Shown: positions 1,245 to 3,564 of the stretch, piece by piece | Layout: the number at the start of each line of letters is the position of its first letter | Position numbering within the stretch: the first letter of the stretch is position 1 | Source: a virus | Taxonomy: Duplodnaviria; Heunggongvirae; Uroviricota; Caudoviricetes | Reading direction: 5' to 3' (one strand) | DNA: 5,317 nt | IMG/VR virus record: IMGVR_UViG_2684622619_000018 | Program-made: the position numbers and the translations under genes | The notes under the pieces: generated by a model | What the model was told of the DNA's origin: nothing | Databases searched by the model: none | What the model saw: only the letters and a program-made list of their open reading frames with translations

Positions 1245-1313
1245 CTGTTTTCTCTGCTGGCGCAGCAGGTGCCAGTTGTTCAGGCTGACGGATGGATTGT
1301 AAACCAGAACGAC

Positions 1314-1343
1314 CAGAAAAAACAAAACCCGCCGAAGCGGGTT
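1314..1343 (-). terminator. Rho-independent terminator ending the hok transcript
   Basis: On the minus strand: AACCCGC-TTCG-GCGGGTT (7-bp stem, 4-nt loop) followed directly by TTGTTTTTTCTGG. It lies about 70 nt after the hok stop codon. Confidence 0.7.
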
Positions 1344-1411
1344 AAGTGCGGGTGCGTTGAGGATGCCTGACACATCAGCGGTGGCGAGGGATTTCTCCCC
1401 CGCCTGGTCTC

Positions 1412-1567
1412 TTACTCCTCAGGTTCGTAAGCTGTGAAGACAGCGACCTCCGTCTGGCCGGTTCGGANTCGTACCTCGCAGAGGTCTTTCCTCGTTACCA
1501 GTGCCGTCACTATGACGGTTAAACAGATGACGATCAGGGCGATTAACATCGCCTTTTGCTGCTTCAT
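1412..1567 (-). CDS. hokD: Hok/Gef family type I membrane toxin (HokD/RelF-type), 51 aa
   Basis: Minus-strand translation from ATG 1567: MKQQKAMLIALIVICLTVIVTALVTRKDLCEVRxRTGQTEVAVFTAYEPEE (x is the N at 1468). It has a single transmembrane helix and the conserved C-terminal Cys, and matches E. coli HokD as I recall it. AAGGAG Shine-Dalgarno lies 9 nt upstream. The in-frame ATG at 1624 (70-aa ORF in the track) is probably not the start. Confidence 0.85.
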   Translation of the reverse strand: MKQQKAMLIALIVICLTVIVTALVTRKDLCEVRXRTGQTEVAVFTAYEPEE

Positions 1568-1784
1568 AACCTGCTTCTCCTTGCCTTTCGGCGCGTAAGA
1601 GGCTAACCTACGTTTGTGAAGCATAGATTGGGCCTCAGATTAATGTTAAGCGTCTTGCAGGACGCGTAATGTTAACTGGGGCTTTTCTCTGTCTGCCTTA
1701 CGGTGGCATGCCCGAGGCAGACAGCCTCAAGCACCCGCAGCAATTCTACTTAACTCTCGCTTTACAGCAAACCGTTTTGCCCGA

Positions 1785-1800
1785 TATGGGAATTCCCATA
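1785..1800. repeat. Perfect 16-bp palindrome TATGGGAATTCCCATA (contains GAATTC), with a second GAATTC-centred imperfect dyad at 1802-1818
   Basis: Read directly: 1785-1800 equals its own reverse complement. 1802-1818 is GGAA-TGAATTCA-G-TTCC. Both lie just downstream of the smORF stop, in the hok leader. Confidence 0.9.
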
Positions 1801-1810
1801 CGGAATGAAT

Positions 1811-1915
1811 TCAGTTCCCCAGGCGCTCCATCAAAAACACAACCAGGCAGTAAACACCCACAACAGCAATAACAGCCAGAGCGCCTTCCATTACCAGTGA
1901 AATATCATCCGACAT
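1811..1915 (-). CDS. Unannotated small ORF: 34-aa single-pass membrane peptide (MSDDISLVMEGALAVIAVVGVYCLVVFLMERLGN)
   Basis: Not in the ORF track (below its length cut-off). ATG at 1915 is preceded by AAGGGAGGGAAT, a strong Shine-Dalgarno at correct spacing. Codon use is E. coli-like (CTG, GGC, GCT). Residues 10-28 form one hydrophobic helix. TGA stop at 1811-1813. Confidence 0.4.
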   Translation of the reverse strand: MSDDISLVMEGALAVIAVVGVYCLVVFLMERLGN

Positions 1916-1970
1916 ATTCCCTCCCTTGGTGTGAATCCCGGCGAACGTTTTTACCCCCACCGACAAATAA

Positions 1971-2000
1971 CATATACTAGAAAAGCAATAGCTATAGCAA
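1971..2000 (-). promoter_or_regulatory. Candidate sigma-70 promoter for the smORF-hok transcript
   Basis: Minus strand: TTGCTA, 18-nt spacer, TATATG, about 50 nt upstream of the smORF start. It overlaps an 8-bp palindrome ATAGCTAT (1988-1995). The match to consensus is only moderate. Confidence 0.25.
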
Positions 2001-2024
2001 CGCCTGCAAATGCATCTGGCCGGC

Positions 2025-2588
2025 TCATTGGTTCTCCCCCTGTGTCGCTTCTACTGCGATCTGACTGGCGTATTCGTTAATGGTAACGATAAGTTCTTGC
2101 TCGGCCTCATCCAGACAACTACCGATACCTCGCCTGTCCACTTCAGAAGCATCGAAATCTGCACGAAGCCTGGCGACCTTCAGGATTGCGGACAACACCT
2201 CATCAGGGATTGCCGGAGAGTTGGTTGACGTTTCCGAGATTATCCGAAAATTATTGGTTGACGAACCCTTATTTTCCCGAAAGTTTCCAGCCTGAAGCAT
2301 GGCGGCGCGGTGACACCAGATAATCCAGCCAAGCGCCATATCCCATGCCATGTATTCTCTATCGCCATTTTTTGCTCTGCGGCGATCTACAGATTCCCCG
2401 AAACGCTTCTCCATAAATAATTCATAGGCTGCCCGTTCATCCGATACTGATGCCAGTGATGCCAGTGCAATTTTTAATGCGGTAAGCATGTTGTTTTGAT
2501 CTTCATCGAGTCCGAACGGTATTTCATCCCGTGATGACTCAATTCCGGTAATCGTGTTCTGTAGCCATTCTTTGGTTAATTCAGTCAT
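2025..2588 (-). CDS. Hypothetical protein, 187 aa, no recognisable domain (ORFan accessory gene)
   Basis: ORF-track 2025..2588 with ATG start and an in-frame TGA one codon upstream. It is AT-richer than the replication genes and uses rare E. coli codons (AGA, ATA, CTA, TTA, AGG). No convincing Shine-Dalgarno; a GC hairpin (2598-2613) sits 9 nt upstream of the start. Confidence 0.55.
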   Translation of the reverse strand: MTELTKEWLQNTITGIESSRDEIPFGLDEDQNNMLTALKIALASLASVSDERAAYELFMEKRFGESVDRRRAKNGDREYMAWDMALGWIIWCHRAAMLQAGNFRENKGSSTNNFRIISETSTNSPAIPDEVLSAILKVARLRADFDASEVDRRGIGSCLDEAEQELIVTINEYASQIAVEATQGENQ

Positions 2589-2714
2589 TTTTCACTACCG
2601 CCCTTTCGGGCGGTCTCCTGATGTTCTGAGGGTGCAGGAATCCCTCCGGTTAAGGATTTAATAAAAATCATTTCTGATTTAAATTTTCAGTGTTTAGTTG
2701 TTGGTTTATAGCCT

Positions 2715-3026
2715 TTATGCTTCGGCCTTATTTCTCAGCCATACACAAACAGGACCATCTTCGGTGTCATGTATCGAACCGATAAACCATCCCTCACCTT
2801 CTGGTCGCTCAGGTTCCCATGCTGAAATATCAGGGCCATCTGCGTCCAGATTAAAATCATCTTCATCCATACTACGGATAGCCCACTGAAGATTATTTTT
2901 CTCCATCCAGGCGTTAAACTCTTCCGTTGAAATATATTCCCGACCATCACAGAATTTTTCATATTCAGGATGCGTCCAGCAGCCATATTCATTACGTTCC
3001 ACTGGCATTTCTTTAATTACGCTCAT
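2715..3026 (-). CDS. Hypothetical highly acidic, Trp-rich protein, 103 aa
   Basis: ATG at 3026 is preceded by AAGGGGGG 4 nt upstream. Its start overlaps the upstream gene's stop as ATGA. By my count about 25 Asp/Glu against 9 Lys/Arg, and 6 Trp. Confidence 0.6.
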   Translation of the reverse strand: MSVIKEMPVERNEYGCWTHPEYEKFCDGREYISTEEFNAWMEKNNLQWAIRSMDEDDFNLDADGPDISAWEPERPEGEGWFIGSIHDTEDGPVCVWLRNKAEA

Positions 3027-3211
3027 TTACCCCCCTTATTTAATTTTCTACGACACTTTTTACAATCATCTGGACTTTCGAATGTATCCGGCTCACGCTC
3101 ATTGCCAAAATACATCCACCCACCGCAAATACTTGTTATTTCACCTTCAGCAAAATAATGATGTTTTTTCGCCATAAGTGGCCTTGCCCAGCCCGGATTC
3201 GTTTTACTCAC
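3023..3211 (-). CDS. Hypothetical small Cys-containing protein, 62 aa, GTG start
   Basis: GTG at 3211 sits 6 nt after a perfect AAGGAGG and overlaps the upstream stop as GTGA. Four Cys (…SICGGW…DDCKKC…) suggest a possible zinc ribbon. An alternative ATG start at 3175 would give 50 aa. Confidence 0.5.
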   Translation of the reverse strand: MSKTNPGWARPLMAKKHHYFAEGEITSICGGWMYFGNEREPDTFESPDDCKKCRRKLNKGGK

Positions 3212-3564
3212 TTGTTGCCTCCTTTGCGAAGCTCTGCGACTAACTCGTCACATATGTGCGTCAAAGAGCAAAGTTTGATTGCTGGATGTTCGCGCACCAT
3301 CTCCACACCCTGCGCCCGCAATTCTGCCAGAAAAGCGTAGGGGTCAGTTTTTTCACTGTGGTACATGGCATCATAGATAATCATTGCAGCGACACCTGCC
3401 TGTCCTGCATCTGTGACGGATATATGCTCAAGGGCTACGGCCATTGCGTGTTTCAACCTCTCATTTTCCACCTCAAGCACCACACGATTAGCCTCCAGCT
3501 CTTCTATGCGTTTTTTTGCTGCTCCCAGCTCAACACGCAGCTCCTGATAGTTAATCTCGCTCAT
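3208..3564 (-). CDS. Hypothetical protein, 118 aa, with a coiled-coil-like N-terminus
   Basis: ATG at 3564 is preceded by GGGAGGAAGGAGA, a very strong Shine-Dalgarno, and overlaps the upstream stop as ATGA. The N-terminus (ELRVELGAAKKRIEELEANRVVLEVENERLK) has a heptad-like pattern. Confidence 0.6.
   Translation of the reverse strand: MSEINYQELRVELGAAKKRIEELEANRVVLEVENERLKHAMAVALEHISVTDAGQAGVAAMIIYDAMYHSEKTDPYAFLAELRAQGVEMVREHPAIKLCSLTHICDELVAELRKGGNK

Follow-up and report, generated by a model that had tools for sequence, protein, structure and literature searches.

The 5,317-nt stretch analyzed here (IMG/VR virus record IMGVR_UViG_2684622619_000018; hereafter the window) comes from an E. 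coli O157:H7 prophage, lambdoid and of the Rac/Qin type, in which it forms part of the early-right (PR-type) operon. The minus strand of the window encodes a 187-residue protein whose gene is separated from the preceding one by a spacer of exactly 126 nt. This spacer carries a ~75-nt leader cassette, widespread in E. coli and Shigella prophages and apparently undescribed, in which a stable hairpin stands between a Shine-Dalgarno sequence and the start codon. The explanation that we favor as a whole, holding it to be reasonably probable, is that the 187-aa gene is an accessory gene that has lost a DUF551 domain, is transcribed by read-through, and is served by a portable split ribosome-binding site that is at the same time a recombination junction. 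A sequence-only reading of the same DNA had proposed instead a moron-like insertion, i.e. an independently regulated orphan gene with its own AT-rich, dyad-rich upstream region. The features of the gene and of its leader are the following.

2025..2588, minus strand: the 187-aa open reading frame (ORF), ATG start, WP_000137954.1, 'hypothetical protein' in RefSeq.
2590..2662, minus strand: cassette core of 73 nt, AATCCTTAACCGGAGGGATTYCTGCACCCTCARAWCAT-CAGGAGR-hairpin-TA..., conserved across loci.
2597..2614, minus strand: GNRA-tetraloop hairpin A-CCGCCC-GAAA-GGGCGG-U, -14.1 kcal/mol with the A-U closing pair.
2615..2619, minus strand: Shine-Dalgarno AGGAG, abutting the hairpin on its 5' side; distance to the ATG 26 nt, or 8-10 nt with the hairpin looped out.
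2628..2646, minus strand: weaker stem GAGGG/CCCTC with a loop of 9, -5.8 kcal/mol, 30 of 200 shuffles being as good.
2663..2714, minus strand: AT-rich 3' trailer of the upstream 103-aa gene, 52 nt, including a weak dyad at 2665-2680.

The ORF (2025-2588) and the spacer (2589-2714) lie where the sequence-only reading had placed them, and the break in gene packing that it described is real: the upstream genes follow one another in a run of four 4-nt ATGA/GTGA overlaps, which the spacer ends. An in-frame TGA stands two codons 5' of the ATG of the 187-aa ORF. The GC hairpin had also been read exactly (CCGCCC-TTTC-GGGCGG at 2598-2613, which is CCGCCC-GAAA-GGGCGG in the sense RNA), and none of 200 shuffles folds as well. 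The two other dyads fared less well. AAATCA-TTTC-TGATTT is at its reported position (2665-2680) but folds weakly (-2.5 kcal/mol), while the GAGGG…CCCTC pair is present but at 2628-2646 rather than at 2623-2641, with a stability no better than chance and with alternative pairings to AAUCC or UCCU possible in its region. The complete 141-nt leader is more stable than its shuffles (z = -3.0). As to the reported lack of a good Shine-Dalgarno, none is indeed found at -5 to -13 of the 187-aa gene, and the other window genes each have a canonical one at 4-8 nt; yet a perfect AGGAG is present at 2615-2619, beyond the hairpin.

The spacer is composite. Its AT-rich trailer is one of two alternative AT-rich versions, in one of which the upstream stop codon falls inside the AT-rich part, and it follows the upstream gene and not the 187-aa one. 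The core behaves differently: a 221-nt spacer query matches 2655 of 5426 complete E. coli genomes, mostly over 2590-2662 only, and pattern scans locate the cassette in at least 120 viral and at least 120 metagenome contigs. The genes found 3' of the core are of the DUF7167, DUF4014, MTELTKE, MQEIKENI and Q-like types, and among 129 cassette instances 46 flank combinations are seen, with gene families numbering at least eight on the downstream side and about ten on the upstream side. Homology drops sharply at each core edge. Since this leader is common to thousands of loci and to many unrelated genes, it cannot mark the insertion of this particular gene, and the upstream region that had been taken as the gene's own precedes at least eight unrelated gene families. 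A short form of the cassette consists of a stop codon, TGT, CAGGAGG, the hairpin and the start. The Stx2a phage ArgO145 has the cassette too, in its early-left operon; one contig holds two copies inside 1.1 kb, and a phage may carry up to two copies, bracketing a gene set. A degenerate pattern run against one genome per species returned only E. coli and Shigella, besides a contaminated metagenome-assembled genome contig and a chance match in an EF-G-like gene. Rfam 15 covariance models report no match in 2589-2714 at E ≤ 1, a literature search with the exact hairpin sequence found no paper, and another on 'lygF', a name in a Rac record, gave nothing relevant.

Phage ArgO145 (L137, positions 1190-1270) contains a third, truncated leader copy, in which the upstream GGAGG of the cassette (CTGGAGGTATATTTATG) acts directly as the ribosome-binding site of a gene; this use suggests, tentatively, an origin of the full cassette by fusion of two ribosome-binding-site junctions. 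Three other identities of the leader were considered and rejected. An upstream leader peptide of 28 codons, from an ATG at ~2669 to a TGA overlapping the ATG of the gene, has ACG as its start in L003 and L004 and GTG elsewhere, is missing in the short form, and its frame enters the gene in DUF7167 loci. The hairpin is not an intrinsic terminator, as it has no U tract and is followed by UAGUGAAAAAUG, and the terminator scan found none here on either strand. Lastly, Pas, AgvB and other prophage small RNAs were discarded, the Pas genes adjoining the holin/lysozyme operon instead.

The register between the Shine-Dalgarno, the hairpin and the start codon is nearly fixed. In a sample anchored on the hairpin alone, GGAG stands immediately 5' of the hairpin in 124 of 125 instances, the base preceding it being variable. 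Of the 77 unique contexts in which an ORF follows, 73 have their start codon 6-11 nt past the hairpin, and 72 have neither GGAG, GAGG nor AGGA in the 3' spacer; a Shine-Dalgarno of their own between hairpin and start occurs in five, all of one Q-like type. Across contexts, the distance from Shine-Dalgarno to start amounts to 22-27 nt in the linear sequence and to 6-11 nt with the hairpin looped out. The stem substitutions are mostly C-to-U opposite G, with pairing kept only in the sense-strand RNA, and full compensations, from G-C to A-U or from C-G to A-U, affect two pairs (L126 and L237). In an unbiased set, anchored outside the hairpin for the analysis of covariation, 97.3% of the hairpin cells are paired, with 21 one-sided pair-keeping changes and one double change, plus one in L126.

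In the Q-like type (L125, L225 and L241), the cassette precedes a Q-like antiterminator gene and the 3' spacer contains its own GGAG (TGGAGATAATAATG); several copies carry hairpin-weakening changes, and a hairpin pair is broken in three of about six unique versions.

This layout recalls the split ribosome-binding sites of phage T4, for which the data of Nivinskas (1999) and of Malys and Nivinskas (2009), as reviewed in PMC3014915, report a shortening from 22 to 5 nt for gene 38 and from 27 to 11 nt for gene 25. The T4 sites and the cassette have in common a Shine-Dalgarno 22-27 nt from the start with a stable hairpin exactly between the two, a similar effective spacing (6-11 nt here versus 5 and 11 nt in T4), and a location at an intercistronic junction of a phage operon. 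They differ in that the cassette is portable, being found before at least eight unrelated gene families and inside a longer conserved leader, whereas each T4 structure belongs to a single gene, with proof from mutations and structure probing; here the function is inferred from the layout only. If we assume that the cassette works as in T4, the 187-aa gene would be transcribed by read-through from the early promoter, and the GNRA hairpin would loop out to bring the AGGAG, 22-27 nt away from the start, to an effective 6-11 nt. Judged by layout and analogy, such a split ribosome-binding site is the best-supported mechanism.

Several observations weigh against this explanation. Covariation in the hairpin is not significant, 70 and 60 of 500 shuffles reaching the observed values, and 11 of 406 hairpin cells are unpaired, including a recurrent variant with a 4-bp stem (CCGCCA-GAAA-GAGCGG). 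In predicted folds, an upstream UCCU or UYCUG can pair with AGGA in the Shine-Dalgarno, a pairing that would repress, not help, initiation. Because the element is confined to Escherichia and Shigella, its near-invariance could stem from recent spread by recombination and not from functional selection. A weak promoter is conceivable in the AT-rich part of the spacer, and the 187-aa ORF could be a decaying remnant. Besides, the AlphaFold2 model of the protein, computed from a 40-sequence alignment, is all-helical and of low confidence (predicted local distance difference test score, pLDDT, of 51.7), and, because of this poor model and of the lack of any family or solved-structure match, the role of the protein can be argued by analogy only.

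The alternative that survives best, although we find it rather unlikely in its exclusive form, takes the cassette as a recombination linker: a homology patch for Rad52-type recombinases, with a hairpin that is incidental or an intercistronic barrier to 3'-exonucleases and has no role in initiation. The Susskind-Botstein modular theory and the genome papers on HK97/HK022 and HK620 reportedly describe conserved boundary or linker sequences at lambdoid module junctions. The cassette resembles these as a short, highly conserved non-coding patch whose flanking genes differ between phages, but it is distinguished by its RNA-like architecture and its fixed register to the start codon, which suggests more than neutral homology. 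The 46 flank combinations, the sharp loss of homology at both core edges, the occurrence in the early-left and early-right operons, the presence of up to two copies per phage around a gene set, and the restriction to one host genus (E. coli/Shigella) all favor a linker. So does the reported ability of phage recombinases of the Red/Rad52 type to build mosaics via short diverged homologies, i.e. homeologous recombination in lambdoid phages (PMC2327257 and PMC3945230). A linker leaves unexplained, however, why the hairpin is always flush with GGAG, why a start codon follows within 6-11 nt with no other Shine-Dalgarno, and why stem changes are biased to those compatible with G-U pairs in the sense strand. 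It also does not exclude a split ribosome-binding site, and the two roles are compatible: the near-invariant cassette would then provide a homology patch for the recombinational swapping of flanking genes.

Regarding the 187-aa gene itself, it is an ordinary swappable accessory gene of the hypervariable nin-like region. Its product is a three-module mosaic, predicted to be helical, drawn from the Ead/Ea22-DUF551 accessory-gene pool of lambdoid prophages, with the following modules.

2451..2588, minus strand: N module, residues 1-46 (MTELTKEWLQ...KIALASLA), common to many proteins of the slot and ending at the KIALASLE/A junction motif.
2292..2450, minus strand: M module, residues ~47-99 (...ERAAYELFMEKRFG...WCHRAAMLQ), shuffling independently among relatives.
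2046..2240, minus strand: C module, residues ~117-181, 80% identical to the inter-domain segment of P0153.

The protein had been presented as an ORFan, which it is not. A database search returns 4326 homologues at E ≤ 1e-3, most of them with a C-terminal DUF551 (PF04448), an exhaustive HMMER scan of 50%-identity representatives reports 1049 clusters with a match, and PHROG matches are obtained with 14306, 660 and 60. Close relatives are mostly longer, and the matches fall into separate blocks (residues 1-47, ~36-101 and ~117-181) in proteins of 69-463 aa. Residues 94-181 share 80% identity with residues 176-263 of P0153, located between its Ead_Ea22 (2-97) and DUF551 (284-341) domains, and another carrier of this block has a dATP/dGTP pyrophosphohydrolase domain at its end. 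The earlier statement that no motif could be placed stands as far as families are concerned, Pfam giving no match even at E ≤ 10, PF13935 and PF04448 included, and NCBIfam, PADLOC and PDB sequence profiles giving none either, but the modules are shared with the Ead/Ea22-DUF551 pool. The profile searches that had been advised ended with no hit in Pfam, NCBIfam and PDB profiles, and structure prediction with a model at pLDDT 51.7, while homologues proved abundant.

Ea22-type proteins are mosaics with portable C-terminal domains (PMC10834534), and we compared the 187-aa protein with lambda Ea22, the Ea22 variants of Stx phages and YfdS (PMC10834534, PMC4776307). They resemble one another as helical mosaics that are encoded in early operons and whose C-terminal domains can be exchanged; in relatives, the C module is situated between Ead_Ea22 and DUF551, and most homologues end in DUF551. 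The differences are that the 187-aa protein matches neither PF13935 nor PF04448, and that its gene is in the right (nin-like) operon, not in the exo-xis region; relatives are found both in the exo-xis region beside Rad52/SSB genes and in the right operon. No direct similarity was found to the Ead/Ea22-like protein of a Stx phage, ArgO145 gp13. By analogy with Ea22, the protein would probably act through helical oligomerisation and protein-protein contacts affecting lysis-lysogeny or host physiology, which is the weakest step of the explanation.

The full locus is present in 343 of the 5426 complete E. coli genomes versus 2655 with the cassette, and in related prophages this position is taken by a DUF7167, DUF4014, DUF551-type, Q-like or other gene. 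The suggestion that the gene is horizontally exchanged and variably present is thereby borne out. The exact protein occurs on at least 1000 contigs. The reported use of rare codons is not confirmed: these make up 8% of the codons, with an index resembling the codon adaptation index (CAI-like; based on E. coli codon frequencies) of 0.62, inside the range of the neighbours (3-15% and 0.60-0.74, respectively). The GC content of the gene is 0.479 (0.47 at third codon positions, GC3) where that of its neighbours is 0.41-0.58, and the profile along the window runs at 0.42-0.53 at the locus versus 0.41-0.50 in the genes immediately upstream, so that neither GC nor codon use delineates an island. Slot proteins starting with MTELTKE or MAELTK share the junction motifs KIALASLEAEP and (A/R)AMLQ (L018, L021, L054, L058, L073, L106, L116 and L123), at which otherwise unrelated modules meet; these motifs look like in-gene recombination linkers.

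The 3' end of the gene carries the trace of a domain loss, and a tiny ORF follows it.

2025..2054, minus strand: deletion junction and retained 3' tail, the last ~9 codons having their homologue at the very 3' end of DUF551 genes.
1951..2028, minus strand: unannotated membrane-like ORF of 25 codons, MSRPDAFAGVAIAIAFLVYVICRWG, with an ATG overlapping the TGA of the 187-aa ORF (ATGA).

The alignment of the protein with its relatives continues to ...INEYASQIAVEA (...ASQIAVEA) and ends six residues later. The DUF551 core (C-terminal ...W-M-P-L-P-E-P-P) is absent and the reading frame is kept, the last codons of the ORF (GAAGCGACACAGGGGGAGAACCAATGA) aligning with the end of the DUF551 gene (GAACCGCCGCAGGAGGTGCGCCAATGA), and the DNA from 1737 to ~2052 is sequence found 3' of DUF551 genes in other E. 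coli. In relatives, CAGAACC is present before the DUF551 core and again at its end, and the sequence fits an in-frame deletion between short CAGAACC-like repeats that removed the core. The same DUF551-less ending is found on other N-terminal modules, as in a 277-aa protein of L058, and is thus no private lesion but an established allele. The tail that was kept holds the ribosome-binding site and the ATGA overlap of the 25-codon hydrophobic ORF, whose peptide (…ICRWG-stop) is conserved after DUF551-type genes in L131 and L004 despite DNA divergence. This ORF probably encodes a real tiny membrane protein, to which the 187-aa gene appears, from the overlap, to be translationally coupled. A second small hydrophobic ORF of 34 aa (WP_001278460.1; 1811-1915, minus strand), with a good GGGAGGG ribosome-binding site, co-occurs in many E. 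coli with the hok/sok locus and the 25-codon ORF.

This loss raises the alternative of a non-functional remnant, a deletion-crippled DUF551-type gene carried along in the clonal O157:H7 lineage. The name-giving domain is indeed deleted, the L130 copy is N-terminally truncated and annotated as a pseudogene, the structure model is of low confidence, and the 100% identity across the O157 genomes listed is uninformative on selection. Nevertheless, the ORF is intact and the deletion in frame, the exact protein is found on at least 1000 contigs, and the DUF551-less ending follows more than one N-terminal module and has thus spread as a working module. We consider a remnant unlikely.

The moron reading assumes that a promoter in the AT-rich, dyad-bearing spacer drives the gene, with the two GC hairpins forming its 5' leader. 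The spacer is AT-rich, the invariant core starts just downstream of the AT-rich part, one AT-rich version, other than that of the window, has a TAAAAT hexamer ~7 nt 5' of the core, and the slot content varies. However, a sigma-70 consensus scan detects no promoter in 2589-2714 on either strand, the best candidates in the spacer reaching 8 of 12 matches (4+4), without the key -10 positions and at an off-optimal spacing. No terminator follows the 187-aa gene either, the sole terminator-like site in 1300-3300 being that at 1326-1343, past hok. GC and codon use are ordinary, the coupled ORF overlaps the stop codon of the gene, the identical leader precedes unrelated genes, and the short-form leader lies only 3 nt past a stop codon, which leaves no room for a promoter. 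Morons are defined by their own promoter, their own terminator and a deviating GC content (PMC3594210). The 187-aa gene shares with those of the HK97 gene 15 type (PMC3594210) the status of an extra, non-essential gene variably present in related prophages, but has no detected promoter or terminator, a GC content like its neighbours and a coupling to the next ORF. With all three defining traits unseen here, we do not count it as a moron. The moron reading is quite improbable, and independent transcription of the gene seems unlikely from its sequence signals.

A translational operator, with a structure that sequesters the initiation signals or binds a phage RNA-binding protein and so lowers or conditions expression, is in our view very improbable. 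It would make sense of the 3' arm GGCGGU, 8 nt from the ATG and resembling GGAGGU, of the folds that pair AGGA with UCCU or UYCUG (Y varying as a U-G or a C-G pair), and of the conservation of the 62-nt core in sequence, beyond structure. In rpmE and thrS, operator stem-loops are known to interrupt a non-contiguous initiation region, but there the stem stands between the Shine-Dalgarno and an AU-rich enhancer and is bound by a known protein (PMC7297116). In the cassette, the sequestering helices are just 4-5 bp long and missing from the centroid fold, no candidate RNA-binding protein was identified, and the short form, devoid of the upstream partner sequences, retains the GGAG-hairpin-start layout. 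An antitermination signal of the boxB or put kind, allowing read-through of terminators into the nin-like region, can practically be set aside: the hairpin has a GNRA tetraloop, which the pentaloop of lambda boxB mimics, stands like lambda nut in an early phage transcript, and occupies what we take to be the position of tR2 in lambda, but no boxA-like sequence is visible nearby in the alignment (by eye), no N-like gene is annotated in a 19-kb prophage stretch (L001), the element is not promoter-proximal (~5 kb from the early promoter), is also found in the left operon and twice within 1 kb, always adjoins a start codon, returns no Rfam match, and is followed by no terminator-like site before hok.

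The prophage setting of the split ribosome-binding site that we favor was established as follows. The minus strand carries every long ORF of the window, and the segment 1950-3050 is 100% identical to E. coli O157:H7 chromosomes. In strain PV15-279, this region sits within a lambdoid prophage that encodes in order a LexA-type repressor / Cro-like, YdaT, DnaT-like, P, DUF1627 and five small hypothetical genes, followed by hokD, a small gene, DUF968, RusA, Q, tRNAs, an esterase and the lysis genes. Pfam analysis of the window confirms lambda P, DUF1627 and Hok, and the operon runs on the minus strand from the replication genes to hok/sok, DUF968, rusA and Q. This gene order, in short cI/cro-ydaT-O-P-DUF1627-...-hokD-DUF968-rusA-Q, together with the Pfam matches and an Rfam match to sok, places the locus in the nin-like accessory part of the early-right operon. 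The remaining features are listed below.

2715..3026, minus strand: upstream 103-aa gene, phrog_1372.
1326-1736, minus strand: complete hok/sok type I toxin-antitoxin unit (sok, hokD, promoter-like site and intrinsic terminator).
1649-1620, minus strand: promoter-like site of hok/sok (consensus scan).
1562-1736, minus strand: sok, Rfam RF01794, 114.9 bits.
1412-1567, minus strand: hokD, Pfam Hok.
1343-1326, minus strand: intrinsic terminator of hok/sok (scan).

In other prophages, the 103-aa gene is followed by the same cassette and then by a DUF7167 or DUF4014 gene. Further upstream, a 118-aa ORF (3208-3564) has a weak Ead_Ea22 match under the Pfam cut-off. The hok/sok unit is the self-contained, moron-like unit of the window and fits the definition of a moron far better than the 187-aa gene does. 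A weak isrK-like Rfam match (27 bits for a gathering score of 50) covers 1322-1403 on the minus strand, over the hok terminator region, and weak isrK/rsmX-like matches are reported by Rfam 15 at 1322-1408; the isrK-like match is probably just the terminator hairpin. The hokD gene contains a single N at 1468, and the DUF968 gene appears as two ORFs (12-302 and 299-964) owing to a run of 50 N at 361-410.

In itself, the 187-aa gene is of limited consequence, being yet another uncharacterised accessory gene among those of O157:H7 prophages; its annotation should place it in the Ead/Ea22-DUF551 mosaic pool, as a member devoid of DUF551, and not among orphans. More is gained from the shared leader, which is unannotated and present in about half of the complete E. 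coli genomes, and whose layout predicts a rare kind of ribosome-binding site, so far proven only in T4. If this prediction is borne out, gene callers and ribosome-binding-site models that expect a Shine-Dalgarno within 5-13 nt would misjudge these starts, and the cassette would represent a concrete, testable case of the way in which exchangeable genes stay expressible in lambdoid phages once recombination has moved them. More tentatively, the ~75-nt cassette might serve in general as a portable structured translation-initiation module and a homology site for exchange, used by accessory genes of both early operons in E. coli and Shigella prophages.

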